Shown in pieces: positions 23,276 to 40,833 of a stretch of DNA of 64,000 bases. The stretch spans positions 32,001 through 96,000 of the IMG/VR virus record IMGVR_UViG_3300033463_000010. The stretch is one strand, 5' to 3'. Source of the DNA: a virus. Lineage: Duplodnaviria; Caudoviricetes. Within the stretch, counting starts at the first letter, position 1; each line of letters opens with the position of its first letter. Under the pieces are notes generated by a model. That model did no database searches. It was given only the letters and a program-made list of their open reading frames with translations, and was not told the DNA's origin. The position numbers were made by a program, and so were the translations under genes.

Positions 23276-23899
23276 ATGCAGTATGTCGTTGACGAATCCT
23301 TAACCAACTTCAAGTTTTGGAGTGGTGCTGCTGACAACGCCAAACTTTTAGAATACAGCGAATTGCAGGAATTGGATGATGTTCTTCCCGAATACTTTAA
23401 TACGGGCGACGGGAACCTCCCGACTGCAACTGAAATCAACGATATGTTTTGGTTTGATTTCGCCACTGTCTGCGAAGCCATCGGCTTGCAGTATGACGAA
23501 GAAAAGGGCGAAATTATCCGTGACAACGACGAAAGCCGTAAGAAGCGTTCCGAAGCCAACGGCAACGACAAGGTGGGTAAGCAGAACTTCACCTATGCAG
23601 AACTTGAAGATGCCTGGAACAAACTCAACGCCCGCATTCAGCGTGACCCGTTTGACAAGGACAATCCCCCGTCGGGTGGTTATGACATTCGCAACGGATA
23701 TGCCTGTGGCGAACGTGATTGGAACGATTGGCACATTGACTTTTCCCTTGACGCTGTTAAGAAAGCCCTTGAAGAAGTGGCTGAACCGATTAAGGAAGGC
23801 GACCTTGAAGTTTACTACAATGACAAGGACAATAATCAAGCCGATTCCGACAATCACGGTATCTTTATCATTGACGGCAAGATTGACACCATTTACTAA
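23276..23899 (+). CDS. Acidic two-domain protein with ESRKKRSE linker
   Basis: FWSGA...TEINDMFWFD domain, linker, second acidic domain. Confidence 0.7.
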   Translation: MQYVVDESLTNFKFWSGAADNAKLLEYSELQELDDVLPEYFNTGDGNLPTATEINDMFWFDFATVCEAIGLQYDEEKGEIIRDNDESRKKRSEANGNDKVGKQNFTYAELEDAWNKLNARIQRDPFDKDNPPSGGYDIRNGYACGERDWNDWHIDFSLDAVKKALEEVAEPIKEGDLEVYYNDKDNNQADSDNHGIFIIDGKIDTIY

Positions 23900-23919
23900 T
23901 TGCAAAGGGGTTCTTGGAT

Positions 23920-24933
23920 ATGGCTAATTGGTCTATCAGTTATACAGACGTTTTTGGTAAGAAGAAAGTTGAATCGTTCACTAGCCAGGGTGCTGCCCAG
24001 GCTCGCTATGAAGAACTCATTCCCCGCACTTACGGGGATTTGGGCGACCTTGTGAACGTGACCGCACCTATCCGTTCCGCTGTGAAAGTTTCGGAAGGTA
24101 TCTTTTACGGGTCTGCCGACAAGAAAGACCCGAACCGCTATGCCGACGGCAAGGAAGAATGGGACGATTTCAAGGACGTGGTTCGTAAGTTGCTTGCTGA
24201 ATTTGACGACCGTGCTGAAACAAAGTTCTTCAAGGTTGTCCCGATTGGTAATGACAACTACGAAATCTATTTCAAGGGCGACGGGGACAAGTTGTCCGAC
24301 CTGCTCTTTATGAGCATTTATCAAAGTGCGATGGGCGAGCCGACTTTTAACGTTATCAAGGGCGACGTTAGCGACGCTGTGTTTGACGACGCTTATGACA
24401 TTGTTGAGCCGTATATCGCAGACGTGTTCCGTATGGCTTATGACGACGGCAACACGGGTATTGTCCGCAAGTTCTATTCTAGCGATGACTTCCACAAGTC
24501 GTTGAAAGAAGATTGTGGGGGTGCGTCTGCTGCGTCGCTTGGAGCAGTCCCGACCGCCACCGTCCGTCCGTCTAACAAGCGTGAGTCTGTGACTTATGAT
24601 AAAGCGAAGACTATGGACGACTGCTATGCAGCGGTAAATTCTACCATTATGGATGACCCTGCTGTTACGTCGTTAGGTCTTTATGTTATTAAGGACGAAC
24701 ACGCTAGTCCGTCGTGTAGTGCGGTATGTATCTATGACTCCGCAGACAAGAACCCCAATAAAGACCCGATTCTTGGGTTTGAGTTCTATGACAACGGGAT
24801 ATACCACGTTGTTTGGTATGAAGACAATGAAGACATTTCCGAAGGTCCTATTAGCAAGTATGGTTCCGCTGCTAAACTTGTGGATTTCTATAAGAATGAT
24901 ATTGTGGAATACTTGCAGCGTTCTAAAAGTTAA
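23920..24933 (+). CDS. Acidic multi-domain protein, putative internal head protein
   Basis: KKKVES, KVSEG, KRES candidate boundaries; precedes the protease. Confidence 0.65.
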   Translation: MANWSISYTDVFGKKKVESFTSQGAAQARYEELIPRTYGDLGDLVNVTAPIRSAVKVSEGIFYGSADKKDPNRYADGKEEWDDFKDVVRKLLAEFDDRAETKFFKVVPIGNDNYEIYFKGDGDKLSDLLFMSIYQSAMGEPTFNVIKGDVSDAVFDDAYDIVEPYIADVFRMAYDDGNTGIVRKFYSSDDFHKSLKEDCGGASAASLGAVPTATVRPSNKRESVTYDKAKTMDDCYAAVNSTIMDDPAVTSLGLYVIKDEHASPSCSAVCIYDSADKNPNKDPILGFEFYDNGIYHVVWYEDNEDISEGPISKYGSAAKLVDFYKNDIVEYLQRSKS

Positions 24934-24960
24934 ACTAAAACCAACCGAGGCAAAAACACT

Positions 24961-26004
24961 ATGCAGATTGCAGAAGACTATATTCCGTTTAAGTGTGAGT
25001 TCATTGACGACATTTCCCGTGTTGACGAATCCGCACAATCCGAAGTTGCTAAAAGTGGTGGCACCATTCTCGCCATTGTCAAGGGTCAGCATTTCTGCCC
25101 TGGCAAGGTAAGCCGTAACCACCGCCTTTATACTCCCGAACTTTGGGAAGAAGCAGGTAAGGACGAAGACGTGCAGCGTAAGTTGACCAACGGACAAATG
25201 TTCGGTCGTATCGGTCACGAAGCCGAAATTACCGACGAAGATATTGCCGACGGCAAGTTTAGCCACATTACCCGCAACATTGATTGGAAGACGGGTATCG
25301 CTGAATCTGTTATCTACAATACGGATATGGGTAAGACGCTTTACACTATCCTTCGTGCGGGCACTACTATGTTTGTCAGTTCCCGTGCCGATGGCGACTA
25401 CGAAGGTAAGGACGAAGACGGCAACGATATTCTTGACCCGAAGACCTACAAACTTGAACGCTTTGACTTTGTGCAGGACCCTGGGTTCCTGGACGCAAAG
25501 CCGAAGATGATTTCCGAAAGCAAGCAGAATGAAAAGATTGAAGAAACCGTCAAGGAACGTGTCGCAGAATCCCTGCTTTCGCTTGCAAAGGAACTTGGGG
25601 CACCCGTTGAACTTGACGGCAGCACCTACGTCGTAGAAAGCCTGGAAAAGAACACTGTTGAAATGACAGATTGTGACAAGGGCACAGGCGACACTTACAA
25701 GTTTGAAGACTTTACCGAAGTGACCGAAGACATTAAGCAGTCTATCGTGAAGTTCGTTGAAGGCTTGCAGGAAGAAGTGAAGCAGTCCGCAGACACTATC
25801 CGTGACTTGAAATTCGCTAACAAGAATGGCTTGAACGAAGCCTACGTGACCGAACGTCGTCGTGCAGGTGCTACTTACGAAGCGATTGAACGTGAGCAGC
25901 CCGAAACGCAGACCTTTAAGGTCCTGGAAGCAAAGGCACCCGCCCGTGAAGCCGAAGACAACGACGGGTCCTTGATTGGTTATATTCTCGGCAGCAAACG
26001 TTAA
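24961..26004 (+). CDS. Prohead maturation protease (T4 gp21-like)
   Basis: RNHRLY, FGRIGHE, FSHI, TDMGK, VSSRADG, FDFVQDPGF..A.P motifs. Confidence 0.9.
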   Translation: MQIAEDYIPFKCEFIDDISRVDESAQSEVAKSGGTILAIVKGQHFCPGKVSRNHRLYTPELWEEAGKDEDVQRKLTNGQMFGRIGHEAEITDEDIADGKFSHITRNIDWKTGIAESVIYNTDMGKTLYTILRAGTTMFVSSRADGDYEGKDEDGNDILDPKTYKLERFDFVQDPGFLDAKPKMISESKQNEKIEETVKERVAESLLSLAKELGAPVELDGSTYVVESLEKNTVEMTDCDKGTGDTYKFEDFTEVTEDIKQSIVKFVEGLQEEVKQSADTIRDLKFANKNGLNEAYVTERRRAGATYEAIEREQPETQTFKVLEAKAPAREAEDNDGSLIGYILGSKR

Positions 26005-26016
26005 GGATGGCTCATT

Positions 26017-26337
26017 ATGGCTAAAATGAAAATCAAGGTTCACGAAAGCAGTAAAAACGAAGAAAAAAGTGTCGTAGATTTGCTTGCGGTTATGGACACT
26101 CCAAAGTATAAGCAGGACTTTGAAAAGATTAAGGCTGCTTACGATAACTTTGAAAAACTTGCAGACAGCCTGGGCTATCGTATTGCGGTGGACCCCGATG
26201 AAGAATATCAAGCCGTCCTGCTTCCCAAGAGTATCGTGAATGACGTGTATTTGGACCAACACGCCAACGCTAAATTTTTGGATGGGACAAAGCCGTTGTC
26301 TAGCATAGTCCCTGTCGTATTAACGTATCATAAGTAG
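26017..26337 (+). CDS. Leader-bearing protein (MKIKVHES)
   Basis: Class I leader. Confidence 0.7.
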   Translation: MAKMKIKVHESSKNEEKSVVDLLAVMDTPKYKQDFEKIKAAYDNFEKLADSLGYRIAVDPDEEYQAVLLPKSIVNDVYLDQHANAKFLDGTKPLSSIVPVVLTYHK

Positions 26338-26347
26338 AGGGCTGTCT

Positions 26348-26614
26348 ATGCCAAAGTTGAAGATTATGGTCCACGAAGCCAAGTCCGACCTTGAAAAGCA
26401 GATTACGAAAGAATGTGTCCGTCTTGGATTGGACCGCCTGGTTAATCGTGGCTATTCTTCACGGATAGTCCCGACTTACGGCAATTACATTGAAAAACAC
26501 AAGGATGAACCTGTTGAACAAATCGCAAAGTATATCTACGACACGGAACAGCGTGAGTGGTTCAAAATGCGTGGCGGTTTCAATATGTTCGGTCTTTTTG
26601 GCAACAGAGGTTAA
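26348..26614 (+). CDS. Leader-bearing protein (LKIMVHEA)
   Basis: Class I leader. Confidence 0.7.
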   Translation: MPKLKIMVHEAKSDLEKQITKECVRLGLDRLVNRGYSSRIVPTYGNYIEKHKDEPVEQIAKYIYDTEQREWFKMRGGFNMFGLFGNRG

Positions 26615-26619
26615 GCACT

Positions 26620-27237
26620 ATGGCACTCCGAATTAACATACACGAAAGCAAGAAGACAGAAGCCCAGGGTCTTGTGTTTCTGCCCGATGGCTTGAAATCC
26701 GACATTGAATACGAACTCCCGTCGCTTTACAGGGCTAACGGACTTGCTGTGTTCAAGGGTAAGGAAGAAGTTGAACCCGACGCAGCCTGGGACGTAGAAG
26801 ATATGTCCTGGGACGTTGACGAAGCCACCGTGTGCGACGATTACCTTATGGTCGCTTTCAAGGACAATCCTGGTGCCGAAAAGGTCAAGTCCATTATGGC
26901 TGACGAATACAAAAAGGCTGTTCTGCCCGAAGCCCTGGAACTTGTCGGCTACATTGACGTGGGTGCCCTGCGTGACGCTTACGCCAAGCAGATTGTGGAC
27001 GCTACAAAGGGCAAGGAATTTGAACTAGGCTACTACCTGGGCGATATTAACGATATGGGTGACGTTCCTGGTGGAATTGACAATGCCTATACCGAAGACG
27101 GGGAAGTTAGTTGTATGGTCGGTGCTTTCGGTTTCGTCGTTGCCGAGGCTGCTAACGGCAGCGAAATCAAGGACACGCAGTCCGCAGACGAAGCCTTGAA
27201 GTTGGTTGAAGAAATGTATAACAAATACAAGGCGTAG
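26620..27237 (+). CDS. Leader-bearing acidic protein (LRINIHESKKTE)
   Basis: GAGG RBS; class I leader. Confidence 0.7.
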   Translation: MALRINIHESKKTEAQGLVFLPDGLKSDIEYELPSLYRANGLAVFKGKEEVEPDAAWDVEDMSWDVDEATVCDDYLMVAFKDNPGAEKVKSIMADEYKKAVLPEALELVGYIDVGALRDAYAKQIVDATKGKEFELGYYLGDINDMGDVPGGIDNAYTEDGEVSCMVGAFGFVVAEAANGSEIKDTQSADEALKLVEEMYNKYKA

Positions 27238-27245
27238 GGCTGTCT

Positions 27246-27635
27246 ATGGGCTTGAAGATTAAAATGCAAGAAGCGTCCAGGAATGACGAAATCCTGGGCT
27301 TGCTTTCGGAAAAGGGTTTTACCGTGGACCAGGAAGCAAGCGATAGGGAGGACCGCCTGGTAGCCTATAAGCAATATAAGGCTCACGGCTACTGCGTCGG
27401 GGATGTTACGTTAGTTGTCAAGTATGACGCATACGTGAACCGCAGCCTGTTTATGAACGTGCTGTCTAATAGTTATGCTAACATTAGACTTAAACGTTCC
27501 GATAGTATCTTTGAAACGTCTATCGTGGATAATCGGGATATGGTTAATCTTGAAGAAGCCCGTCGCTGTATCGGTAATGCCGAACGTGCGGTAAATATGT
27601 ATATTTCAGCATTAGAAACAATTTACGAGGTATAA
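27246..27635 (+). CDS. Leader-bearing protein (LKIKMQEA)
   Basis: Class I leader variant. Confidence 0.7.
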   Translation: MGLKIKMQEASRNDEILGLLSEKGFTVDQEASDREDRLVAYKQYKAHGYCVGDVTLVVKYDAYVNRSLFMNVLSNSYANIRLKRSDSIFETSIVDNRDMVNLEEARRCIGNAERAVNMYISALETIYEV

Positions 27636-27637
27636 CT

Positions 27638-28675
27638 ATGTTTAACTGCTCTATGCAAAAGAAGAAAGAAAGCCTTGCCAAGCAAAATGAATACAAGCGT
27701 GGCGAACTTGATTTTAGGGGTGGCTTTGACTTTAACGGTAAGCCGAAGAAGTCCGTTATTTCCAAGATTAGCAAAGCCCTTGATAAAGCGGGCATTTCCG
27801 CAGTCGTGGACCCGTCGGGGGAACGCTTGGAAGTTCCCTTTGGCGATGATGCTGTGTATATGACGGCTATGAGCCAAAGTTATGGTTCTAGCAAGTGCAG
27901 TTATGTCAATGTTCGCCAAAAGAGCGACCGTAGCACTGACGTGGGTGTTTATAACGTTGGGGATGCCGTGAGTGTCGTGCAGGAAATTACACAGGGGCTA
28001 GACGCTCCCAATGAATCCAAGAAATCCGAATCCGCAGCAGGTCGTTCGTTCTATGACGAATTTATTGCCGAACGTGCCCGTGATATTCTTGAAGAATACG
28101 ACGTGAACGAAGCCCAGGGCGGTATGTGCGATTATTGGTATAACATTGGCGACGGTGTTGAAGATATGGAGCGTGACGACCGCAGTGGCTTTTTCTCTTA
28201 TAACGATGGTGGTGTTCAAAAGACTTGGATGACTACCCCGTTTATGCTTGCGGGCGGTGGCTACCTTGACCCGAAGACGAAACCCGAATATGACCGCCTC
28301 CGTAAGAACTGCGAAGACGACTATCGTGAAGAATGCGAAAAGAATGGGGTTGAGTGCGATTTCAGTTCCGAAGAATACTATGAATTTGAAGACACCTGGT
28401 CCCAGGAAGGTCTTGAAATTTTCGCTTATGCGGAAATTATGCTTTATAGCCGTAATTCCGACCGTGACGAATATACGCTTATTGCCCGTATCAGCCGTAG
28501 TTTTGACTATACCTACGGACGTAACCCGCAGGACGATTTGAACATTGAAATGGATTTGACTTCGGAACAATTCACGAAGGAAAACGCAGACAAGTTCTTC
28601 GCTGCTGTTGAAGAAGCATTCGCCAACTATTCGTTTGACGATGGCGACAAGGAAATTAACGTTAAGGCAGATTAA
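27638..28675 (+). CDS. Leader-bearing polyprotein-like protein (CSMQKKKESL; NESKKSES linker)
   Basis: Class II leader; very acidic second domain. Confidence 0.7.
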   Translation: MFNCSMQKKKESLAKQNEYKRGELDFRGGFDFNGKPKKSVISKISKALDKAGISAVVDPSGERLEVPFGDDAVYMTAMSQSYGSSKCSYVNVRQKSDRSTDVGVYNVGDAVSVVQEITQGLDAPNESKKSESAAGRSFYDEFIAERARDILEEYDVNEAQGGMCDYWYNIGDGVEDMERDDRSGFFSYNDGGVQKTWMTTPFMLAGGGYLDPKTKPEYDRLRKNCEDDYREECEKNGVECDFSSEEYYEFEDTWSQEGLEIFAYAEIMLYSRNSDRDEYTLIARISRSFDYTYGRNPQDDLNIEMDLTSEQFTKENADKFFAAVEEAFANYSFDDGDKEINVKAD

Positions 28676-28699
28676 GTCTGCAAAGGAAAAGGTAAATCT

Positions 28700-29473
28700 A
28701 TGGCATACAAATGCTCTATGCAGAAGAAAAAGGAAAGCCTTAACACGAAGGCTGAATCCGCTAACTCCAACTATTATTTCAGTATATGGACTGAAAATTA
28801 TCCCAAAAATGGCAAAGAACCCACACGTTATATTAACGTGTATGAGCCTTCGTCTTGTAAGGGTTGGTATGACGTTACAAAGGAATATGACGACGCTTAC
28901 GAAGAAGAAATGGAACTCCGTAATGGTAATGTAAATTACACCTATATCGCCAAGAAAGTTATTGATAAAATTATTTCGGGTGCCATTAAGCCTTGTGATG
29001 ACCCGTATGACACTATCCCTAACTTTTCTAGGTGGTTCAAGGAATATCCGTTTAACATAAGTGAACACACCCAGGATTTCCTGGACGGGAAGTATGGTTC
29101 TCGCAGCGAATCCAAGAAGCACACTTGTTCTATGCAGAAGAAAAAAGAAAGTCTTGCTGCGAAGAAGTCCAAGAAGTGCGAAGGCTTTATGGATGACCTG
29201 CCGTATGACGCACCCGTAGCCATTGAAACCCTGTGTTCCGAAATTATGAGCCACACCGAAGAATTTACCATTGAAGACGCAGCCGTGGCTGAAATGTGCG
29301 GTAAGTGGTATATTCGTGATTACGCAAATGGTTCTACCGCAGCACAGAACGAAGACGAATTTGTTGACGAAATCCTTGCAGGTCTTTCGGGCAGTCCTTT
29401 GGACGGCTCCCCGTTCGGTGCAGCCGAAGCCGAAGAATACGCCAGGAAGATTTACAACGAAGTCGTTGCTTAA
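28700..29473 (+). CDS. Leader-bearing protein with two CSMQKKKESL copies
   Basis: Class II motif at the N-terminus and internally. Confidence 0.7.
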   Translation: MAYKCSMQKKKESLNTKAESANSNYYFSIWTENYPKNGKEPTRYINVYEPSSCKGWYDVTKEYDDAYEEEMELRNGNVNYTYIAKKVIDKIISGAIKPCDDPYDTIPNFSRWFKEYPFNISEHTQDFLDGKYGSRSESKKHTCSMQKKKESLAAKKSKKCEGFMDDLPYDAPVAIETLCSEIMSHTEEFTIEDAAVAEMCGKWYIRDYANGSTAAQNEDEFVDEILAGLSGSPLDGSPFGAAEAEEYARKIYNEVVA

Positions 29474-29496
29474 AGAAATCCTACGACAAAATCATC

Positions 29497-29526
29497 AAGG
29501 TGCCCCGATTGTTCGGGGCACTTTTT
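29497..29526 (+). terminator. Intrinsic terminator
   Basis: GGTGCCCCGA-ttgt-TCGGGGCACT-TTTT. Confidence 0.85.
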
Positions 29527-29576
29527 GTATGCCCATTTTCTTTCGTATAAATTAAATATAATAGATTACCTAATTT

Positions 29577-29621
29577 ATATAACAAATTACCTACAACTTA
29601 TAACTAGGTAATTTGTTATAT
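29577..29621. repeat. Perfect 17-bp inverted repeat of the promoter motif with 11-bp spacer
   Basis: ATATAACAAATTACCTA-N11-TAGGTAATTTGTTATAT. Confidence 0.9.
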
Positions 29622-29822
29622 TTGACATTTTTTGACATTTTATTCAAAACTTTTTCAAAATCGCACAAAAATTTTATTATATTCTGTTGTCAAAGGGAGG
29701 GCAATTTCCCTGCCAATACTTGTCGGCAATTCTTATTACTGACAAATTCCCTTGTAGGAGGGTGGCTTTCGTAGAGCCATCTCTAACTAACAAAAAACAA
29801 CCCTATCAAGGAGAGCATTATT

Positions 29823-30320
29823 ATGCTTAAATTCCGCAAGAAACTCCGTGAAGAAGACAGCATCGTGGAAGTTGGCGACGTTAAGTTGGATGCCAAGGAA
29901 ACCGAAGTTGTTTTCGCTGACGAAGAAAAGGACATCCAGGTTGTCGTTTCCCCCGACCCCGAAAACGAAAACTCTGTGACCGTCGCAGTTCTTACTAACT
30001 CCAAGGAAGACGTGGAAGAAGAAGAAGTTCTTGGTTCTGCTTCCGTTGAAGGTAGTGAAGATAAAGGTGCTGAAGAATCCCGCAAGGCTGCTCGTCGTGA
30101 GGCATTCCGTAAGCGTCTTGAAGCCCGTCGTTCTGCAAAGAAGCAGACCGCACCCGCCCGCAACGAGGCTCGTGCCGAAGCGTTCCGCAAGCGACTTGAA
30201 GCCCGTCGTGCTGCAAAGAAAGCAGAAGCCAAAACTTCTACTTCCACTGCCGAAGCCCGTAAGAAGGCAATCGGTGAAGCACGTGCGAAGTTCCGTTCCA
30301 AAATTGGCAAGAAAGCCTAA
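29823..30320 (+). CDS. Prohead scaffold/core protein
   Basis: Immediately upstream of capsid; acidic N-half, basic helical repeat EAFRKRLEARR x2. Confidence 0.6.
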   Translation: MLKFRKKLREEDSIVEVGDVKLDAKETEVVFADEEKDIQVVVSPDPENENSVTVAVLTNSKEDVEEEEVLGSASVEGSEDKGAEESRKAARREAFRKRLEARRSAKKQTAPARNEARAEAFRKRLEARRAAKKAEAKTSTSTAEARKKAIGEARAKFRSKIGKKA

Positions 30321-30338
30321 CCCAAAGGAGAAGACATT

Positions 30339-31988
30339 ATGAAGACTTCCGTTGAAGAAATGTCTAATCAGAAATACAACCGCCTCGTAGAATCCTACGA
30401 AGCCCGCTATGGCAAGCAGTTTGAAGCCCTTGCCAAGTCCCCGTCGTTCAAGGGCACCTTGTCCAAGAACGCTATGTTCAACCTTGGTCAGCAGATGGAC
30501 AACTACAAGCGTTACGAAAGTTTCGTGAACGAAAATTCCTCGGCTTCTAGCCTTGGTGTGTTGCCCCGTGTTGCTCTTGACCTTATTTCTGCTACCTACG
30601 CACTTTCTATTGCTCCGCAGTTGGCAAGTGTGCAGACGCTTGAAGAATCCCAGGGTCTTATCTACTTCAAGAAGACCTTTACCCACGGCTATCCGCTGAC
30701 TGCCCAGGAAGGACTTCCGTCCCTGCCCGAAGACAGGTGGATGGGTGCCGACGGTAAGTTTGAAGGCGACAAGACTTTCGCAGGTGCCTGGAAGAAGTGG
30801 CTTGACACCCGTGGTCGTCCCGTTGCAGGTCCCGACACCGAACTGACTGCCGAACAACTCGCAGCCAAGAACTTTGACGCTATCACTTTCAACGCCCTCA
30901 AGGGTTGGCAGGCTTCCCCGACGCAGTATATGAGCGAACGTCAGTTTGCTATCGCTGCCGACGGTTCCGCTACCATTAAGTATGGCGTGGGCAACCTCCG
31001 TTGGAACACCCCGATTAACGTCCGTCTTGTTGACAAGAACGGCAACGTTGAAGACGTGGTTGGTGTTTGCGGTGGTCCTGGTCAGTTGCCGACTTTCTAT
31101 GGTAAGGTTTCCGTGACCGCTGCTGCTGTTGGTCCCGACCTTGTTCTTACCATTCCGACGGGCTACCAGGGTGGCGTGACTTATGACGTTGACTTTGAAA
31201 AGGCTCCCGACGTTCCTGCTATTGAATACGCTCTTGACAACAAGGTTGTCAGTGCCGAAATCATTGGCTTGAAGGAAATGATGGGCACGTTCAAGTCTTT
31301 CCAATTCAACAAGCGTTTTGGTAAGGCTGCGTCCGACGAAGTTCTTGCTGACCTTACGGGTCATATGGCTATGGCTGAATCCGAAAAGATTCTTGCTGCC
31401 TATGTCCGTTGTGCTAACAAGTGGAAGCCGATTACCTGGAATCTCAACAAGACCGCAGGTATCAGCGAATTTGAACACCGTCAGTCTTTCCTGTATGCTA
31501 TCCAGGCTGCTTCTGCTGCTATCGGTAGCCGTGCAGGTAAGGGTCACGCTAACAAGATTGTTGCGGGCTACGTCGCTTGTCAGTATATTGCGTCCCTCCC
31601 TGGTTTCCGTCTTGCTCCGCAGACCAACCTTGTGGGTCCGCACGTGTATGGCACTCTTGAAAACGAAGGTATCACGGTTATCCGTTCCAACACCATCGTT
31701 GCCCCGAACGAAGTTATCTGTGCTTACAGCAGCGATAACAGCCCGTTTGAAGCACCTGTTGTGTGTGCAACGTATATGCCTGTGTTCCTCACCGACACTA
31801 TGCCTGTTGCCGACAACCCGTTCCAAACGCAGCGAGCAATCGCTTCTTGGAAGGCTATTGAACCTGTGGTTGCCGAATTTGTGCAGCGTATCGTCATCAC
31901 AAATGATGCCGAAGCACCTGCCGACGTGAACGTGTTCCTTACTACCACCCCGAACGGTGGCAGCGGTAGCGGTTCTAGCAACGGCTAA
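30339..31988 (+). CDS. Major capsid protein (T4 gp23-like)
   Basis: LDLI..TY..SIA..LASVQTL...QGLIY; GHANKIVAG; GTL; V.ATYMPV pattern; strong codon bias. Confidence 0.9.
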   Translation: MKTSVEEMSNQKYNRLVESYEARYGKQFEALAKSPSFKGTLSKNAMFNLGQQMDNYKRYESFVNENSSASSLGVLPRVALDLISATYALSIAPQLASVQTLEESQGLIYFKKTFTHGYPLTAQEGLPSLPEDRWMGADGKFEGDKTFAGAWKKWLDTRGRPVAGPDTELTAEQLAAKNFDAITFNALKGWQASPTQYMSERQFAIAADGSATIKYGVGNLRWNTPINVRLVDKNGNVEDVVGVCGGPGQLPTFYGKVSVTAAAVGPDLVLTIPTGYQGGVTYDVDFEKAPDVPAIEYALDNKVVSAEIIGLKEMMGTFKSFQFNKRFGKAASDEVLADLTGHMAMAESEKILAAYVRCANKWKPITWNLNKTAGISEFEHRQSFLYAIQAASAAIGSRAGKGHANKIVAGYVACQYIASLPGFRLAPQTNLVGPHVYGTLENEGITVIRSNTIVAPNEVICAYSSDNSPFEAPVVCATYMPVFLTDTMPVADNPFQTQRAIASWKAIEPVVAEFVQRIVITNDAEAPADVNVFLTTTPNGGSGSGSSNG

Positions 31989-32010
31989 TTGCTTAACTCC
32001 CTGTTGAGTG

Positions 32011-32043
32011 AAGACACCCCTGCGTAAAGCGGGGGTGTTTTTT
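32011..32043 (+). terminator. Intrinsic terminator after the capsid gene
   Basis: GACACCCC.GC...GCGGGGGTGTT-TTTT. Confidence 0.8.
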
Positions 32044-32116
32044 ATAGGGTGGTTGTCCGAAGTTGAAAAAATTTTATTATTTTTATTGACGATAAACTTC
32101 AAATGGGGTAATGCTT

Positions 32117-32248
32117 ATGGCAGAAGAAACCACCGCACCCGATTCTTATTCTTACCTGGCTTACATTTTGGCTATGTATGCCGACGAAGAACAGCGTGAC
32201 GAAACCCTGTGGACGGGAAACTTCACAGGCGACGTGTTGCCGTATTAG
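32117..32248 (+). CDS. Small hypothetical protein (43 aa, not in the ORF track)
   Basis: MAEETTAPDSYSYLAYILAMYADEEQRDETLWTGNFTGDVLPY; typical codon usage. Confidence 0.5.
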   Translation: MAEETTAPDSYSYLAYILAMYADEEQRDETLWTGNFTGDVLPY

Positions 32249-32281
32249 CGTCTAACAATTTTCCAAACAAGGGACACCCGT

Positions 32282-33289
32282 ATGTCTAACAAGCATTTCA
32301 AGATAGTTGTTAAAGAAGCAAAGAAGAATGAAAGTAAGTCCGACGGTGAACGTGCCGTGGACGACTATGATACCCTTATTGACGGTCTAAAAGAATTGGG
32401 ATTTGAGCCGTCGTCCAATGTTCGTAACGGTAAGATTTATCCGTATAGAACAAGGTTCACTGCGACCAAAGACGGCATTAAGTATGGCTTTACTCTTAAT
32501 GAAGACCTCACAGGCGAATATCTTGAATCCATTGAAGTCGTTGGTGGAAGCATTTACACGGGCGACCCAAATGACAAGGACGCTAGGGTGTTTAAGTCCG
32601 TCGGTGAAGTCCTTGACGCTTTGAAGCAGGTTGACGGTAAGAAGTCCGAGGCTATGGATATGTCTAGGGCGAAGCAGATTGTAATGGGTGACACTCGCCA
32701 CAACCCTAAAACGGTTGCTGAGGAAATTGCGTGGTCTGCGTGGGTTGAAAGCGACGGGCACCCTAAAGCATTATTGCGTAAGGCTGCTAGGGATTACTAT
32801 AATAGCGGGCTATTGGCTTCTGCTGAAAGGGCACGTTATTTGTTGGACACCTATACAGACGAAATGCGTGAACTTTATAAGGAATTTACGTCGTCGGTTG
32901 AACCTGCTGAAGTTGCGTCCACAGGTGAAGTTATCCCGTGGAGTTCTTTTGAAGATATGTCTTCTAAAAATGAAGCTGACGCAGAAGCCTTTATTCAGTG
33001 GATTACTGAAAATGTTGCACGTAAGTTGGTTCGCTATGCTAGTGAGTCAATGAAGTCCGAAAGCCTTTCGCTCAAACAGAAAGAACTTAAAGATATGGCA
33101 CGTTATGGCGAAGCCGAAGACATTACTACCATATCCGACGCAGAAGCAAAGGAACTTCGCAAGAAGGGCGTTGAAACGGTGGGTGTTAGCCGTGGGACCT
33201 ACGGAATGAACGGTGCCTTGCTCCGTGACAAGGACGGCAATAAATACGTGATTACCGCCCGCAGCTCTAACCTGTTCTACTTTGTATAA
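32282..33289 (+). CDS. Leader-bearing three-domain polyprotein-like protein
   Basis: FKIVVKEAKKNES leader; KKSEA and SESMKSES linkers. Confidence 0.7.
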   Translation: MSNKHFKIVVKEAKKNESKSDGERAVDDYDTLIDGLKELGFEPSSNVRNGKIYPYRTRFTATKDGIKYGFTLNEDLTGEYLESIEVVGGSIYTGDPNDKDARVFKSVGEVLDALKQVDGKKSEAMDMSRAKQIVMGDTRHNPKTVAEEIAWSAWVESDGHPKALLRKAARDYYNSGLLASAERARYLLDTYTDEMRELYKEFTSSVEPAEVASTGEVIPWSSFEDMSSKNEADAEAFIQWITENVARKLVRYASESMKSESLSLKQKELKDMARYGEAEDITTISDAEAKELRKKGVETVGVSRGTYGMNGALLRDKDGNKYVITARSSNLFYFV

Positions 33290-33315
33290 AATTTTTTAAA
33301 TAAAGGAAAACTCTT

Positions 33316-34650
33316 ATGAATAAAACATTCACCTGCTCTATGCAGAAAAAGAAAGAAAGCTTTGCGAAGAAGTCCGAAGCAAAGACTTGCGAAGCCACGT
33401 TTAAGCAGGGCGTGGACGACTTTATCAGTTGTGCCCCGTCGGGTGGTTGGTCCGACTATTGGGCTATGCAGCAGGATTGGGAAGCGTTTAAGGACGGTCT
33501 TTGCCGTGACGGTGTGATTACACAGAAGCAGGCAGATTCTTGGAGTAACCCTTGTACCCCCGAAACTTTTGCTCGCTGGCAGAAGCGTAACGGCTTGGTT
33601 AGCCGTGGTTACGAATCCAAGAAGTCCGAAGACACCTATGACCGTCCTGTGACCTTGTATGCTTCTACTCGTTATGATGACGCAGAAGAAGCACAGAAGT
33701 TCCTTGATAGCATTAGCGGTGGTGAAGTAAAGGTGTCCAAGGAACGCAATGGTGATACCTTGTCTGTGAGCATTGAAGGTGACGATGATGCTATTGACAC
33801 ATTCCTTGCAGTCTATAAGGATAACTATGATACCCTTGAAAAAGATTGCGATGCAGATGTTAATGGTTGGACGGACCCCGTGGATTTGAAGTATTATACG
33901 GTACAGGGTCGTAAGGAACTCACAGGTGAATCCGAAAGCAAGCAGAACGAAAAGAGTAAGGCTGTCTGTGCTGTTTGTGGGGAACCTACAGATGACCCTG
34001 TTTTTGACTATGACCATACTTTCTGTAAGGATTGTTACGGTGACGGTGGGGACGTTTGGAAGGGTGATAAGGCGAATGCTAATGCTAAATTTGTTGTTGG
34101 GACAATGATTAGTCTTGACGGTGTTAAGCAATATATTCGGGAATTTAGACCTCGTACTTTCGTAGCTCAAAACGTAGACACAGGTAAGGAAGTTACTTTG
34201 CCCCGCTCTAGTCTTAATCGTGCTTTCGCTTTATATGACCCTAGAAAGTCGGATTACGACGACAGGGGTAATTTAAAAAACCGTGAATCAAATAAAAAAG
34301 GCGAATCCAAGAAGTCCGAAGGCATTGGCGACCGAATCAAGATGGGCATAGACTACAATATGTTTATGCGTATGTGTGGTTCCGCAGCCTACCTTGATGA
34401 CAATGAAGACTATTGGGATGCACTGTGGGAATACTACTCCGAAATGGGCGAAATTGAAGACGCTTGCGAGTTCTTTGACAACTTGTTCCAATACACCGCT
34501 TGGTGCGATGCAGACGAGGTGTACGATGAATACTTGGACGATAAGTTCAAGGACGAGTCCAAGAGCAAGGAAGAATGTATTGAGGCTGCTGTTGACGCAG
34601 GCGACCTTGACGTTTTCAAGACGGACAAGGGCTATCTTGTAATTCAGTAA
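33316..34650 (+). CDS. Leader-bearing four-module polyprotein-like protein
   Basis: CSMQKKKESF leader; YESKKSED, ESESKQNE, GESKKSEG linkers; CxxC..CxxC module. Confidence 0.75.
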   Translation: MNKTFTCSMQKKKESFAKKSEAKTCEATFKQGVDDFISCAPSGGWSDYWAMQQDWEAFKDGLCRDGVITQKQADSWSNPCTPETFARWQKRNGLVSRGYESKKSEDTYDRPVTLYASTRYDDAEEAQKFLDSISGGEVKVSKERNGDTLSVSIEGDDDAIDTFLAVYKDNYDTLEKDCDADVNGWTDPVDLKYYTVQGRKELTGESESKQNEKSKAVCAVCGEPTDDPVFDYDHTFCKDCYGDGGDVWKGDKANANAKFVVGTMISLDGVKQYIREFRPRTFVAQNVDTGKEVTLPRSSLNRAFALYDPRKSDYDDRGNLKNRESNKKGESKKSEGIGDRIKMGIDYNMFMRMCGSAAYLDDNEDYWDALWEYYSEMGEIEDACEFFDNLFQYTAWCDADEVYDEYLDDKFKDESKSKEECIEAAVDAGDLDVFKTDKGYLVIQ

Positions 34651-34667
34651 CAACCCGTGAAATGCAG

Positions 34668-34694
34668 AAGCACCCCTTAATTGGGGTGCTTTTT
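34668..34694 (+). terminator. Intrinsic terminator
   Basis: AAGCACCCC-ttaatt-GGGGTGCTT-TTT. Confidence 0.8.
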
Positions 34695-34766
34695 ACCTTA
34701 TTGATGTTTTTTAAATGCTTGAACCCGACATTGAACTATCCTCACACTAAAGATGTGTAGGATTCC

Positions 34767-35969
34767 CTAACTTACAGCAACATTCGTCGCTGATGGTTTC
34801 GGGCATTCTCGGTTTTGAAGCCGAGCATTGTTTAAGACTTCGGCAGGTCCCCCGCCTAGTGTCTTCTTAACTCCAAGATACAGAATGTTCCGTGCAGCGT
34901 TTACGTCCCTGTCGTGTTCGGCATTACATACAGGGCATACCCACCGCTTCACGCCTAGCACGACTTCGGGGTTTACGTTCCCGCACACATTACAAGTCTT
35001 GCTTGTATATTGTGCGGGGACTTTGACCAGGTTCGTCTTGTAGGACAGGTATTGCCGAAGCAACCCGAACCCCTGGTCACTGACAACTTTCCCGTGTTCT
35101 TCTTCGGATGACATCTTCTGTAAATTTATGTCTTCCACGAACACGTATTGGTATCTGTCAGCCAGGTCACGGCTTACCTTGTGCAGCCAATCCCTGCGTT
35201 GGTTGACTACCTTTTCGTGCAGCCGTGCAACTTTGGACTTGGCACGGTAATACCTCTTGGACTGCACGTCCTTGCCCTTTACGAACCTGCGGGATTGGAC
35301 CTGTTGGTATTTCTCCAACTGCCGTTCTTTCCTTGTCAAGAAGCGAGGGCACTTGACTTTCGTGCCGTCGCTCAAAGTGAGGAACGAATCGTCGGAGCAG
35401 TTCCAATCTATCCCGACCGCCTTTCCGTTCTGTATTTTAGTTTGTTCTTCTTTAAGTTCTACGCAAATCTTGACATACCATTTCCCGCTTGCAGACCGCT
35501 TGAACGTTATGTTCTTCCACTTGCCCTTGCAGAACTGCGATGATGCGTGGATAGGTATGTAGCCTAATTTTCGTGTGACGTATAAACCTTTTTTTGAAAG
35601 ATACGCTGAATTATTCTGTATGTGATACCGAAACGATACTTTTTCGTTTCGTTTACATTTATATGTCGGTTGGTGTGAAAATGTAGAAGGTTTGTTGCTT
35701 TTTAATGATTTGTAGAAATTAGAATACGCCCCACGTATATCCATCCAAGTTTGTGTTAGTGGTATGGTATCTATTTCTTTAACCCATTCAAGTGCTTCGG
35801 GTTTAAATTTTGTAAATGTCGGTTTGTAACCCTCTATAAGAATTTTGTGATTTTCGTTTTTATTTTTAACAATAATGTTGTAGTATAATCGGCATAGACC
35901 TAGTGTCTTGTTAAAAATAGACACTTGTTCTTTAGTAGGATAGATTCTATATTCGTATGCCTTAAACAT
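34767..35969 (-). CDS. tnpB: TnpB RNA-guided endonuclease, IS200/IS605 type (tnpB-2)
   Basis: KAYEYRIYPT, GIDWN, VEDINL, CNVCG/CPVC, DRDVNAARNI; end GATAGTTCAA at 34731; promoter TTGACG-17-TATATT at 36028-36000. Confidence 0.92.
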   Translation of the reverse strand: MFKAYEYRIYPTKEQVSIFNKTLGLCRLYYNIIVKNKNENHKILIEGYKPTFTKFKPEALEWVKEIDTIPLTQTWMDIRGAYSNFYKSLKSNKPSTFSHQPTYKCKRNEKVSFRYHIQNNSAYLSKKGLYVTRKLGYIPIHASSQFCKGKWKNITFKRSASGKWYVKICVELKEEQTKIQNGKAVGIDWNCSDDSFLTLSDGTKVKCPRFLTRKERQLEKYQQVQSRRFVKGKDVQSKRYYRAKSKVARLHEKVVNQRRDWLHKVSRDLADRYQYVFVEDINLQKMSSEEEHGKVVSDQGFGLLRQYLSYKTNLVKVPAQYTSKTCNVCGNVNPEVVLGVKRWVCPVCNAEHDRDVNAARNILYLGVKKTLGGGPAEVLNNARLQNRECPKPSATNVAVS

Positions 35970-36127
35970 AAATTTGATAGTATAGTATGTTCAGCTATAA
36001 ATATACAATCAAAATTTAAAAACGTCAAGGGTTTTATGGGTATGCTGTAATATATGGCTATTCTATACGGTATAAAGCTGTCAAAGCGTATTAAATTTAT
36101 TATATTGGTTGTAACTATGGTGGTTAT

Positions 36128-36847
36128 ATGCTGAAACCTGGTAATCAAAAAGTTTATTTCATAGAGAACGACGACTTGTCTAAACTCTATCCCGACGCAG
36201 AAGACGCACAGGACAAAGCCCTGGGCGTTCTTGAAGGCGAGCAGTCCTTTATTATCGTGGACGGTGAACAGCTCCCCATAGGCTACGATAGCGAAAAGGA
36301 TGCTATCCTGGTGGAAGACAGCAGCACTTCCGATAGCGTGATTAAAAAGGCTCGCAAGCTGCTTGACCTGTTCGTGAAGAATGAACTGTTCGGGACCCGT
36401 GAAATTGAAAATGAAAACGGGTTTATGCCCGACGACGATTACCCTATGTCCGTGAATGTCACGGACGGTAATTCGTATCGCACGGTTTCTTATTACCCGT
36501 CTATGCAGCAAATGGCGAATGCACAGGTCCATTTGTGGACGGGAAGCGGGTATAGCACCCACGTATTCTATGTGAACGTCCACAATGGCGACCGCAACCC
36601 CGAAGAAGCCCTGGAAACGGCTGTGGTCCTTGCCGAAAAGATTGACAAGTCCGTATTGTTAGACGTTGCCGAAACCGAACAGGCTATGGCAGACGACGGT
36701 CATTACGACAAGGATAGCGGTGAGGGCGACGCTGTTTTTGAAGAAACATACATTTACGTTGACGCTACAATGTTGGGGGCTTCGCAGCCTTACTACGTGT
36801 ATGCAGAAAATTTCGGAGTGCTGCCCAATAAGGGCGAACTCGCATAA
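36128..36847 (+). CDS. Acidic hypothetical protein
   Basis: 239-aa ORF, typical codon usage. Confidence 0.7.
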   Translation: MLKPGNQKVYFIENDDLSKLYPDAEDAQDKALGVLEGEQSFIIVDGEQLPIGYDSEKDAILVEDSSTSDSVIKKARKLLDLFVKNELFGTREIENENGFMPDDDYPMSVNVTDGNSYRTVSYYPSMQQMANAQVHLWTGSGYSTHVFYVNVHNGDRNPEEALETAVVLAEKIDKSVLLDVAETEQAMADDGHYDKDSGEGDAVFEETYIYVDATMLGASQPYYVYAENFGVLPNKGELA

Positions 36848-36861
36848 AAGAGAGGTAGGCT

Positions 36862-37677
36862 ATGTCTAAAATGAAAATCAAGGTCCACGAAAGAAATTCC
36901 GATAATGACCCGCAGCGTTTCTACGATAAATTGAACCCTGCTGAAAAGCGTCGTTTTGACGGGCTTGCCGACACGGTTGAAGCCCTGGTTGGTGTGTTTG
37001 ACGAAAACGGAAAATTGTCTAAACCGCAGCAAGACCAACTCAAGGAAGCCAGGGACACGATTTACGTGTTTGGCTATGCAGCCAGGGGCTATGTAAGTCT
37101 TGCCGACGAAGTTCTTGCCAACTATGGCGTGGAACCTTTGCTTGACCCGAACGAACCTGTCTTTGGCGAATCCAAAAAGAACGAAGACACCGACGACGCA
37201 GCCGAAGCACTCGCAAAGGAACTAGGGGTTTCTGTTGACAAGGTTTCGGATAGCTCCCAGGACTATGACTATTATGAACTCGATTACACGTATGACGTTG
37301 AATTGACGGACGGCACGACTGCTACTTACCTTGTGTATGATAATCAGCAGTCTGCTATTGACGCTGCTGCGGACGATTTGGGTGAACGTTTCCACGACGA
37401 CAGTAGCATACTTGGGGCAGCTATTGAATACTTCGGCTTCGGGACGCTTTCCGATTATTTGAACGGATATGACGACGAAATGGCTGACCTTGAAAGTCTT
37501 TGTGACGACGTGAGTTCCGAAGAATTTGCACGTATGTTGCAGCAGCGGGGCGGTTTGGATTACCGTGGGTTTGCTGAATACAACATAGGTGAACTTGGGG
37601 CTGCTTGGCACCTTTCCAATTATGACGGCAAAGAAGTTGAACTTGAAAACGGTATGCTCGCATATCGTGTAGATTAA
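36862..37677 (+). CDS. Leader-bearing two-domain protein (MKIKVHER; GESKKNED linker)
   Basis: Class I leader; very acidic C-domain ending HLSNYDGKE...YRVD. Confidence 0.72.
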   Translation: MSKMKIKVHERNSDNDPQRFYDKLNPAEKRRFDGLADTVEALVGVFDENGKLSKPQQDQLKEARDTIYVFGYAARGYVSLADEVLANYGVEPLLDPNEPVFGESKKNEDTDDAAEALAKELGVSVDKVSDSSQDYDYYELDYTYDVELTDGTTATYLVYDNQQSAIDAAADDLGERFHDDSSILGAAIEYFGFGTLSDYLNGYDDEMADLESLCDDVSSEEFARMLQQRGGLDYRGFAEYNIGELGAAWHLSNYDGKEVELENGMLAYRVD

Positions 37678-37689
37678 GGGAGTAAGTAT

Positions 37690-39195
37690 ATGTCTTTGAA
37701 AATCAAAACACATAAGTTTGAAAGCCGTGTAGCTCCCGCTGCACAGCGTCGTCCGTTTGGTCGTATGGCTGAATCCAAAAAGTCCGAAGCTACAAGTTTC
37801 GGTGCGGGAATGTCTAAACGCACGGACCTGTCCAAAATGCGTAATTTGGGTGAAGTCATAGACGTTCTTGAAGAACACAAAAAACTTATGGAAAATAAGG
37901 CAAAGGATTTGTCGCAAAGCAAGGAAGACTTGCAGGCTGCGATTAAGTCCCTTAACGAATTTTCCAAACACGTCCTGTTCTTGAAGCAGCAGTCCGTAAA
38001 GGGTATCAAGGACGCACTCACGTTCAACAAGTCCCCCGAAGTCAAGGCTGCTGCCGATATTGAAAAGCACTTGAAGAATGCTCTTAAAATCCTTTACTCC
38101 GATTATGAGAACATTCCCGACGTTACTCAACTGCTGACAGTTGTTGACAGTCGGTATGCTACCCGTGGTGACAAGGTTGTGACCGCCTGGGTTGACAATG
38201 CGACCCGTGCTATTGAAGTGGACGCAAAGACGATTAAGGACAGCATCGCTGCGGGCGATATGTCCGAAGACGACGTTGTGAAACTTGTGACGGTTACTTA
38301 TGCTACCCACGGTGTCAAGAACAAGGACACCGTTGAAAAGGTAACGCCTGTCCTTGAACGTATGAACGCCTTGCTTGCTTCGGCTCCGAAGATTGAAGAA
38401 GCGGTCATTGACCCGAAGGAATTTAAGGAACTCCGTGACCTTGTGGAACAGATTGTTAAGGAAGCGTCCGAACCGACGCTTACTGTCAAGACTGCTATCA
38501 CTACGCTTTCAAAGGGCGAACTCGCAACCGTCCCGTCCGAAGCGTTTGTGTCCGAGGGTCTGCTTGACAAACTCAAAGACCTTGTGGCTTCTCTCAAGGA
38601 CAAGATTTCGTCCCTGTGGAACTCGTTTACTTCCCTGTTCTTCAACCTGGAAGACGAAGCCCTTGAATCGGCTGAAACGTTTGCCGAAGTTGAAGAAGGC
38701 TTTGCCATTATGGGCATTGTCGTTGAATCCTACGTTGCAAAGAGTGTTCCGCTCGGCAAGCAGTTTGAAGTCCTTACGAAGTCCGTGCTTCACTGCTGCG
38801 ATAAACTTGTCAAGGACGCTTCCCTTGCGGGCGAATTTGACGACGAAGTGATTTACGCAGAAGAAGCCGTCAATAATGCCGTTGAGTCGTTCCAGGCTCT
38901 CGGTGAAGCCTGCAAGACTTTGAAGAACGCATTGTCGTATCACAAAAACGAAGACAATATGAACGTTATCGGTATTCTTGCGGACGCTATCACGCAGATT
39001 GTGAACGACGACAATGGCAGTGCCGATACGGAAGGTGGCGACGACTCCGAAGACGACGAAAATTCTGTAATCCGTGACGTTGAAAAGGAATATAGCCCCG
39101 CAGGTGGCGAGGGCGGTGAAGAAGGTCCCGAAGCGAACGGTGGCGAGAACGAAGCCCCGAACCCCGCTGAAATGGGCGAACCCGAAACGTTCTAG
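37690..39195 (+). CDS. Leader-bearing helical protein, putative prohead core/inner-body protein
   Basis: MSLKIKTHKFES, MAESKKSEA; coiled-coil rich. Confidence 0.65.
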   Translation: MSLKIKTHKFESRVAPAAQRRPFGRMAESKKSEATSFGAGMSKRTDLSKMRNLGEVIDVLEEHKKLMENKAKDLSQSKEDLQAAIKSLNEFSKHVLFLKQQSVKGIKDALTFNKSPEVKAAADIEKHLKNALKILYSDYENIPDVTQLLTVVDSRYATRGDKVVTAWVDNATRAIEVDAKTIKDSIAAGDMSEDDVVKLVTVTYATHGVKNKDTVEKVTPVLERMNALLASAPKIEEAVIDPKEFKELRDLVEQIVKEASEPTLTVKTAITTLSKGELATVPSEAFVSEGLLDKLKDLVASLKDKISSLWNSFTSLFFNLEDEALESAETFAEVEEGFAIMGIVVESYVAKSVPLGKQFEVLTKSVLHCCDKLVKDASLAGEFDDEVIYAEEAVNNAVESFQALGEACKTLKNALSYHKNEDNMNVIGILADAITQIVNDDNGSADTEGGDDSEDDENSVIRDVEKEYSPAGGEGGEEGPEANGGENEAPNPAEMGEPETF

Positions 39196-39669: not shown

Positions 39670-40833
39670 ATGAATTTTACCGAAAATGCAAAGACTAAAT
39701 TTTGGGCTGACCTTTCCGCAGGTGTAAAGTCCACGTTTGGACATTCTCTCGGTGAAGCGTTCCACATTGACCAATACAAAAGTGGTCGCTTCTCGTTTAC
39801 CGAATCCGTGACGGGCGGTCCTGGTGCTGTCACACGGCTTATGGACTCTTTAAAGGCTTCCTCGCCTGTCATTGAGTCGGTTCGTATGACACCGATTTCC
39901 AACGGCTACAACGCTACATACAACGTGTCGGTTGAATTTAACCCCGTCAAGGCTGAATCCGTTTACAGCGACGGCAAGGACAACGTTAAGACCTTTGAAA
40001 AGGACGGCAAGACCTACGTCGTCGGTAGCGACGGAAACGCTATTCCTGTTGACGACCCCGACAAGTTTATGGATAATGTAAACAAGACCACGGGTTCTAG
40101 TTACAAGAAAAAGTCCGAAGACGCAGACCAGGTGGATATGGACGGGTTCCCGATTGAACTTGACTCCGTTATCGCTCTCGCAAACGAAGCCCTTGACGGC
40201 ACGGGCGTTACTATCGCTAACGAAGGCGGTAAGCTGCTTGTCCGTGGTGCGTCCGAACTTGTGAAGCCGACCCAGGAATTTGTCCCCGAACCGTATTACG
40301 GTGCCGACTCTATTGACGGTGGCTACGACGAAGAAACGGGCGACCTGGCTCTTACCATTCCCGAATATCCGACGGAATACGAAATTGAACAGCTCCGTTC
40401 GTTCCTTATTTCTGCGGTCAACTGCATTATGGACCACGCCCTGTGCAAGACTGCCGATTGCTCCGACGACGATTGGTGCAACGCTATGGCAGAAGCAGAA
40501 CCGTGCGAAAGCTACGTTCACAAGTATGGCTACCTGGGCGAAGCATTTGTCGGTAATGACAAGAAACAGGTTGCTATCCTGGTGAAGTCGCTATTGCAGG
40601 AAAACCGCCTGGAAGACGCAAAGAAAGTCGCCACGAAGCATATGGGTGCTGAAATGGCAGAAGGCTTCACCCGCAAGTATGCACCCGAAAAGGTGGAAGA
40701 AAAACATCAAGCGGTCATTACAGACGAAATGGCTCTGCTTGACAGAATGCACGAATCCGCTATGAACCGTGCCCCCGAAAAGGTGGTGGAAATGGATTCC
40801 CTCGTCGCCAAAAATTTAACACAGGAGAAGTAA
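39670..40833 (+). CDS. Acidic protein with many xES sites, putative head core protein
   Basis: AGGAG RBS; FTES, VIES, KAES, KKSED, PCES, MHES; first gene of the sheath operon. Confidence 0.6.
   Translation: MNFTENAKTKFWADLSAGVKSTFGHSLGEAFHIDQYKSGRFSFTESVTGGPGAVTRLMDSLKASSPVIESVRMTPISNGYNATYNVSVEFNPVKAESVYSDGKDNVKTFEKDGKTYVVGSDGNAIPVDDPDKFMDNVNKTTGSSYKKKSEDADQVDMDGFPIELDSVIALANEALDGTGVTIANEGGKLLVRGASELVKPTQEFVPEPYYGADSIDGGYDEETGDLALTIPEYPTEYEIEQLRSFLISAVNCIMDHALCKTADCSDDDWCNAMAEAEPCESYVHKYGYLGEAFVGNDKKQVAILVKSLLQENRLEDAKKVATKHMGAEMAEGFTRKYAPEKVEEKHQAVITDEMALLDRMHESAMNRAPEKVVEMDSLVAKNLTQEK

Follow-up and report, generated by a model that had tools for sequence, protein, structure and literature searches.

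In bacteriophage T4, the prohead protease gp21 cuts after Glu and strips capsid-targeting sequences of 10 residues from the internal proteins (PMC9026906, PMC5694885). The protease gp175 of phiKZ cuts at S/A-x-E, and gp245 of SPN3US, which prefers Ser at P1', cuts at A-x-E and also frees itself of a C-terminal propeptide of 64 residues; in phages of this type, multiple cuts mainly break up long propeptides, which are later cleared (PMC10052503). Polyvalent proteins carry two to fifteen unrelated domains per polypeptide, are delivered with the DNA and are mosaic, and their proteolytic release has been proposed (Iyer et al. 2017, PMC5512222). The present study concerns a short peptide linker, ESKK(S/N)E, which recurs in the open reading frames (ORFs) of a 64,000-nucleotide stretch of viral DNA (hereafter the window), namely bases 32001–96000 of the 213,231-bp IMG/VR virus record IMGVR_UViG_3300033463_000010 (estimated completeness 97%, G+C 47.7%). 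The source phage is an uncultured jumbo myophage with a T4-like head module. We propose, with a probability of roughly two in three, that the linkers are recognition and cleavage sites of the gp21-like prohead protease of this phage and join independently folding modules of about 100 amino acids (aa) into cargo polyproteins.

The ORFs concerned are given below, several of them with a short N-terminal leader, here called the tag. The positions under which the initial annotation had listed the linkers are the starts of the ORFs and not those of the motifs, which are given here in nucleotides (nt) of the window.

23276–23899, + strand: two-module ORF of 207 aa; junction ESRKKRSE at aa 86–93, nt 23531–23554
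26620–27237, + strand: tagged, putative cargo protein; tag MALRINIHE-SKKTE, with ESKKTE at nt 26644–26661
27638–28675, + strand: two-module ORF of 345 aa; N-terminal CSMQKKKES tag and linker ESKKSE at aa 126–131, nt 28013–28030
28700–29473, + strand: two-module ORF of 257 aa; SESKK at nt 29108–29119, then an internal CSMQKKKES copy at nt 29129–29152
32282–33289, + strand: three-module ORF of 335 aa; tag FKIVVKEAKKNE, KKSE at nt 32639–32650 and ESMKSE at nt 33044–33061
33316–34650, + strand: four-module ORF of 444 aa; CSMQKKKES...KKSE tag and linkers at nt 33613–33630, 33934–33951 and 34303–34320
36862–37677, + strand: tagged ORF of 271 aa (MSKMKIKVHE...); ESKKNE at nt 37168–37185
37690–39195, + strand: tagged ORF of 501 aa; ESKKSE at nt 37771–37788, between a 27-aa leader and a conserved body
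39670–40833, + strand: conserved 387-aa protein, a doubtful member; KKKSE at nt 40108–40119
50978–51718, + strand: tagged (MSLKIRLHES) S-adenosylmethionine lyase (PF23780, E 3.6e-12, aa 60–158); ESKNE at nt 51533–51547

Comparison with relatives and structure prediction both place the linkers between what are predicted to be independent modules. In BLASTP against four relatives (G001–G004), which have a protease identity of 84–87% and share the linker motif but differ in gene architecture, the homology blocks start and stop at linkers. The second module of ORF 27638 (aa 129–345) corresponds to stand-alone, tag-led proteins of 223 aa in G001 and 231 aa in G004, and aa 137–254 of ORF 28700 match the last module of a 468-aa G001 protein. 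In ORF 32282, aa 11–187 match aa 322–491 of G001_107318, a stretch lying between two linkers of a 591-aa protein, and the C-terminal part (from aa 244 or 262 to aa 335) matches the terminal module of proteins of 1265 and 650 aa. Modules 3 and 4 of ORF 33316 are found in two separate G001 proteins of 1265 and 489 aa, and the counterparts of ORF 37690 in G002 and G003 have about 105 extra aa between the tag and linker and the conserved body. The initial annotation had placed all of its listed linkers at apparent domain boundaries; the ends of the homology blocks bear this out for ORFs 27638, 28700, 32282 (both sites), 33316 (all three) and 37690, as does, for ORF 23276, a tag-led stand-alone 130-aa protein of G001 that is 66% identical to its aa 98–207. 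The site in ORF 39670 is doubtful, because its relatives align end to end over their full length and have KKKEE or KKK-EN at the position of KKKSE. This KKKSED and the DESKNEA of ORF 50978 are weak instances among the listed sites; the ESKNE of the latter is a candidate site downstream of the enzyme domain, and no homologue of ORF 50978 occurs in G001–G004. For ORF 36862, no informative relative was found.

The four modules of ORF 33316 were also followed through metagenomic sequences. An exhaustive profile search with this ORF found 133 metagenomic cluster representatives, and 133 of the 149 matched stretches were confined to one module, with starts clustering at aa 20–30, 95–110 and 310–345 and ends at aa 85–95, 205–215 and 430–444. 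Each of the four modules has homologues far shorter than the 444 aa of the whole ORF, with 72, 119, 195 and 103 aa, and each module also occurs in other combinations and alone. The 133 homologous proteins contain 140 linker motifs, spaced at a median of 102 aa with a peak at 80–120 aa, and in only 4% of cases at less than 40 aa. Mosaic polyproteins reach 1296 aa with 5–7 junctions, and the modules are recombined between phages.

AlphaFold2 was run on ORF 33316 with a placement-checked alignment (A2). A first alignment of 145 module fragments (A1), which MAFFT had misaligned, was replaced by this checked subset, and a single-sequence prediction, with a predicted local distance difference test score (pLDDT) of 42, was too poor for use on its own. 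With A2, the pLDDT was 70–87 at aa 26–93 and 108–192 and 50–87 at aa 349–444, and the three linkers (aa 94–107, 193–214 and 301–348) had a pLDDT below 50 and no secondary structure. The predicted template modelling score was 0.29, indicating that the domains have no fixed mutual arrangement. Since A2 has almost no depth at module 3, the fold of this module and the region of the third linker are modelled with less certainty. A Foldseek search of the model against PDB gave nothing at E <= 0.001. The expectations attached to the initial annotation, namely independent domains with disordered linkers and stand-alone homologues for each segment, are thus borne out for ORF 33316, the model showing domains and low-confidence unstructured linkers and every segment having homologues alone or recombined. 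As in viral polyproteins, one ORF encodes several units that are predicted to fold independently, with the same short motif at each junction.

The linker itself is far more frequent than composition would produce. Over the whole genome, in a crude set of 280 ORFs, the strict motif was observed 11 times versus 0.03 in residue shuffles, and the pattern K[KQ][SN]E[AGSD] 11 times versus 0.79, all 11 lying inside candidate cargo ORFs. A looser pattern (the full motif, ESKK or KKSE) gave 19 matches in 12 ORFs, including a second cluster at the ends of the record (genome 1595–3616 and 207691–212435) with a 673-aa ORF that has four sites. Translated in six frames, the window contained ESKK[SN]E five times and the wider ES[KRM][KQ][KR]?[SN]E eight times, in every case inside real + strand ORFs between 25516 and 37771 and never in another frame. 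At the DNA level, the 18-mer GAATCCAAGAAGTCCGAA, allowing up to 3 mismatches, matched the window 7 times, always on the + strand, compared with an expectation of 0.05. The earlier observation that near-identical linkers, and their DNA, recur is therefore confirmed, and the recurrence is restricted to the coding frames of + strand genes of the head region. No paper containing the motif strings turned up in a literature search.

When 151 distinct instances are combined into a logo, the consensus is [SDNG]-E-S-K-K-[S>N]-E-[AGS], with small residues following both Glu and with hydrophobic residues at 0–6% within the motif. Immediately downstream of the capsid gene, relatives with 68–70% protease identity encode polyproteins of 919 and 991 aa, in which many of the 6–7 junctions have shrunk to KKSE plus a small residue, and the GKKSEA of ORF 32282 is kept as PKKSEA in G001, where similarity falls off after the motif. 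These data indicate that the core of the linker consists of K-K-(S/N)-E and a small residue after it.

The same core ends the N-terminal tags. A pattern search of the genome found 18 ORFs with such leaders, 14 of the KIxVHE(S/A/R) type and four with SMQKK(K/I)ES, one of these four having the tag internally only. Full leaders of the first type read KIKV(H/R)E-SKK(S/N)E, as in LRINIHESKKTE and MKIKVRESKKNE, and the tag of ORF 26620 likewise terminates in the linker motif. The second class, (C)SMQKKKES(L/F)AK(K/Q)(S/N)E, ends in ...AKKSE or ...AKQNE and was seen at window positions 27638–27700, 28700–28760, 29126–29152 and 33316–33380. The linker is thus the Glu-terminated C-terminal half of the leader, minus its hydrophobic part. 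Furthermore, in the alignment of ORF 32282 with its G001 homologue, KEAKKNE at the end of the leader falls opposite the internal linker KESKKSE, so that one module is tag-led in the source phage and linker-led in a relative.

The possibility that internal linkers are fused whole tags was ruled out for the KIxVHE class, with an internal copy in 1 of the 133 proteins. In the CSMQKKKES class, internal copies of the whole tag do occur, namely at aa 144 of ORF 28700, at aa 141 of genome ORF 212449 and at aa 136, 161, 278 and 357 of G001 proteins; they have the appearance of tagged genes fused in full, or of another type of junction. Some large polyproteins (P0031, P0035, P0047 and L066:18152-20911) open with only M-K-K-S-E before their first module, in forms such as MKKSEANIEDL... 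and, with a GTG start, VKKSEVNIEDL...; this would be a five-residue leader made from the linker core alone.

Relatives with 45–55% protease identity have compact head modules with no internal linkers, and they keep N-terminal leaders whose last residues, K-x-(S/N)-E, precede A or S. The leaders of their presumed scaffold proteins, which would be expected substrates of the protease, end in GKKNE-A, GRKSE-S or FRKNE-E (L062:11088-11540, L063:11116-11616 and L064:11242-11703), so that in these distant relatives a protein of core assembly seems to bear this type of site. As their head modules are compact and linker-free, the polyprotein layout looks like an elaboration within one clade.

The proposed protease and its own copy of the site are encoded as follows.

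24961–26004, + strand: prohead serine protease, T4 gp21-like, 347 aa; catalytic domain at about aa 16–188 and a 155-aa C-terminal extension
25516–25533, + strand: ESKQNE in the protease (aa 186–191), candidate self-cleavage site at the C-terminal edge of the S77 match

The protease matches phrog_207 (head maturation protease) with E 3.6e-22 and, below the curated cut-off, PF03420 (Peptidase_S77) over aa 16–188; 13 of its 73 homologues have a precomputed PF03420 match, and phmmer against PDB sequences found no relative. Among 74 aligned sequences, the candidate catalytic residues H86, S140 and S141 are 99–100% conserved. As described initially, ISESKQNE stands just after the catalytic domain, ESKQNE overlapping the end of the S77 match. 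At this site, [IV]-[ST]-E-S is about 96% conserved (E 97%, S 95%) in the 74 sequences, down to 45% identity. The connection between protease and linkers would accordingly be closer than first described, as judged from the identity of linker and tag end, the exchange of tag and linker between phages and the conserved protease site.

Based on these features, the following course of events may be suggested. The N-terminal tag (KIxVHE... or CSMQKKKES...), both types of which terminate in K-K-(S/N)-E, would bring the whole precursor into the assembling prohead, like the capsid-targeting sequence of T4. Once the shell is assembled, the protease would cut after Glu wherever K-K-(S/N)-E precedes a small residue, and perhaps a further time after the first Glu, that of x-E-S, so that the tag would be removed and the modules separated, to stay in the head for delivery with the DNA. 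By cutting its own copy of the site, the protease would shed its C-terminal extension. A cut after the second Glu is most likely, given the tag ends, the MKKSE-A mini-leaders and the reduced KKSE junctions; a second cut after the first Glu, which the deeply conserved protease site favours, is possible, and both may be cut. Targeting, cleavage, retention and ejection of the modules are what we infer from the arrangement of motif, tags and protease. The polyprotein strategy first proposed for this phage is supported in part: the linkers lie between modules and share their motif with the tag ends and with the site in the protease, and they would be cut, after packaging, inside the head.

Several points weigh against this reading. 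With K and S at P3 and P2, the site fits neither the T4 rule, with hydrophobic P3, nor the phiKZ rule, with small P3, and the match of the protease to PF03420 (E 1.4e-4, 21.9 bits) lies below the gathering score of 27. The major capsid protein does not contain the hexapeptide, so that the protease must accept other sites too if the capsid protein is processed. Background hydrophobicity is regained two positions upstream of the first Glu and two downstream of the last, indicating that the exposed segment is short. Finally, proteases at 45–55% identity keep only V-S-E-S, without KK(S/N)E, so that either Glu may be the one that is cut.

The deviating P3 and P2 residues could also mean that the linkers are cut elsewhere than in the head, either ahead of packaging or following injection, by a protease of the host or a different one of the phage. 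We consider this improbable, because the motif recurs at a conserved domain boundary of the prohead protease, the motif also terminates the N-terminal leaders of head-module proteins, and no second peptidase domain was found in the polyproteins by Pfam scans. Somewhat less improbable, while still unlikely in our view, is that the proteins stay uncut and act in the head or in ejection as multidomain, "polyvalent" proteins, in which the motif is a short binding signal, repeated for avidity, by which they are targeted to or retained on the scaffold core or the shell interior. Uncut packaged polyvalent proteins are known, such as the virion RNA polymerase of N4; the N-terminal tags share the motif, and such tags in T4 serve for targeting as well as being cleaved; the protease, which also needs targeting to the core, carries it. 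In contrast, the internal copies lack the hydrophobic KIxVH and keep only the Glu-terminated end, the two invariant Glu, with small residues after them, resemble the Glu-specific sites of the T4, phiKZ and SPN3US prohead proteases, and mini-leaders such as MKKSE-A are very short for a binding signal.

A different explanation takes the motif mainly as a recombination scar, that is, a conserved 18-nt microhomology for cassette exchange between tagged genes, with an encoded peptide that does nothing biochemically. Between phages, modules break at the motif, and the exact 18-mer recurs several times per contig in related IMG/VR phages. The second linker Ser is TCC in 19 of 20 instances versus 36% for Ser elsewhere in the same ORFs (G000–G004; p ~5e-8, the instances not all being independent), and this bias, seen for example at window 33613–33630 and 34303–34320, is nucleotide conservation beyond the need of the peptide. 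However, the first linker Ser is TCC in 28 and AGC in 12 instances, codons that are not one mutation apart, and Lys uses both AAA and AAG, yet E, S, K and E are invariant, which indicates selection on the protein sequence; orthologous protease sites also differ in DNA while keeping E-S-K-x-x-E. A scar without a peptide role thus has little chance of being the explanation, about as little as cleavage by another protease. A DNA-level signal such as a promoter or binding site was ruled out, every copy having the same reading frame, the coding strand and synonymous variation.

Recombination at the motif and cleavage of the peptide can coexist, and the data are compatible with linkers that, besides their peptide role, spread by copying or serve as microhomology for module exchange. 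A tentative extension of the cleavage reading, which we hold possible rather than probable, gives the linker a double role, as a protease site in the peptide and as an 18-nt microhomology word by which modules are swapped, added or split between genes and phages. The result would be a cassette system in which a large pool of injected proteins, each of about 100 aa and probably aimed at host defence, is rapidly re-assorted behind one packaging tag.

Compared with T4, the proposed cargo polyproteins share the basic scheme of head cargo. In both phages, otherwise unrelated proteins, in T4 the internal proteins IPI-III and Alt, carry a common short leader ending in Glu plus a small residue, and the gene of gp21 or a gp21-like protease stands upstream of the scaffold (presumed in the source phage) and gp23 or gp23-like capsid genes. 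T4 cargo consists of one leader and one protein, whereas up to four modules follow one leader in the window and 5–7 in relatives, joined by a near-invariant hexapeptide with the site K-K-(S/N)-E in place of L/I-x-E. The jumbo myophages phiKZ, 201phi2-1 and SPN3US likewise cut many head proteins after Glu, often at multiple sites, and their protease drops its own C-terminal propeptide. Their motif is a loose three-residue rule whose cuts mostly shred long N-terminal propeptides, whereas the junction described here is a fixed motif of 6–8 residues between pieces that are domain-sized, also occur stand-alone and are shuffled between phages.

Polyvalent proteins are the closest known concept, and their mosaic architecture of many domains is also met in the clade of the source phage. 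They have an embedded zincin-like metallopeptidase and recognisable conflict domains, whereas Pfam scans of the polyproteins found neither, and the protease proposed here would act in trans at a defined linker. Among dsDNA viruses, African swine fever virus makes internal virion proteins as the core polyproteins pp220 and pp62, which a viral protease cuts at a short consensus sequence as the virion matures. This virus infects eukaryotes, its cysteine protease is unrelated, the site cut is Gly-Gly-X and the products are structural components of the core shell; we know of no homology between its system and the present one. We rate protease-processed phage head cargo as a known kind of system and the linker-joined module polyproteins as a new form of it.

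Concerning the function of the modules, a Pfam scan of 14 polyproteins gave no family above the curated cut-off, no peptidase and no known conflict domain, and a scan of nine large proteins with module 1 at their C-terminus also gave no family. The term "effectors" used for the modules in the initial annotation is therefore unsupported, as no polyprotein module matches a Pfam family. The sole activity recognised by Pfam among the tagged proteins is the S-adenosylmethionine lyase of ORF 50978; if the tag loads the head, this protein (50978–51718) would be injected alongside the DNA as an anti-restriction enzyme.

If the cuts are real, this clade of jumbo phages loads its heads, by way of a few polyproteins, with a large and rapidly changing stock of small proteins, an economy that differs from both the one-gene-one-cargo scheme of T4 and the propeptide shredding of phiKZ-type phages. 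The sharply defined candidate protease site, K-K-(S/N)-E plus a small residue, is open to peptide testing, and about a hundred new domain families become candidates for early-acting injected functions. Head cargo of uncultured phages may thereby be predictable from sequence alone, and the arrangement suggests a design rule by which several foreign proteins could be loaded into a capsid behind one tag.

The + strand of the window carries the T4-like head and tail module to which the linker ORFs belong, including the following genes.

29823–30320, + strand: ORF of 165 aa, presumed scaffold by position only
30339–31988, + strand: gp23-like major capsid protein (PF07068 Gp23, E 2.7e-10)
40837–43125, + strand: ORF of 762 aa, presumed tail sheath by size and position only

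The order of protease (24961–26004), 165-aa ORF and Gp23 match (30339–31988) is the same in six relatives; the 165-aa ORF had no family match in the Pfam scan. Megablast of the region against GenBank phages gave zero matches, hence no near relative there, and the capsid proteins of the best cultured matches are only about 30% identical.

Other genes were observed near the head and tail module of the source phage and its relatives. In the window, a 431-aa ORF at 43816–45111, downstream of the presumed sheath, after a 200-aa ORF and before the next tail-module ORFs, is suspected from its sequence to encode a TnpB / IS605 OrfB-like protein, and OrfB_IS605 / Cas12f1-like_TNB genes adjoin the capsid gene in the relative L066. 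In L065 (protease identity 62%), tail-fibre-like genes (Phage_fiber_2) directly follow the protease region (L065:12059-18647), with a reverse-transcriptase gene (RVT_1, weak match) on the opposite strand; together they may form a diversity-generating retroelement. QueC-like and GTP cyclohydrolase I genes beside the head module of distant relatives (L062:722-2419 and 9230-9919; L063:9007-9696) suggest, by their annotation, a 7-deazaguanine modification of the DNA in L062 and L063.

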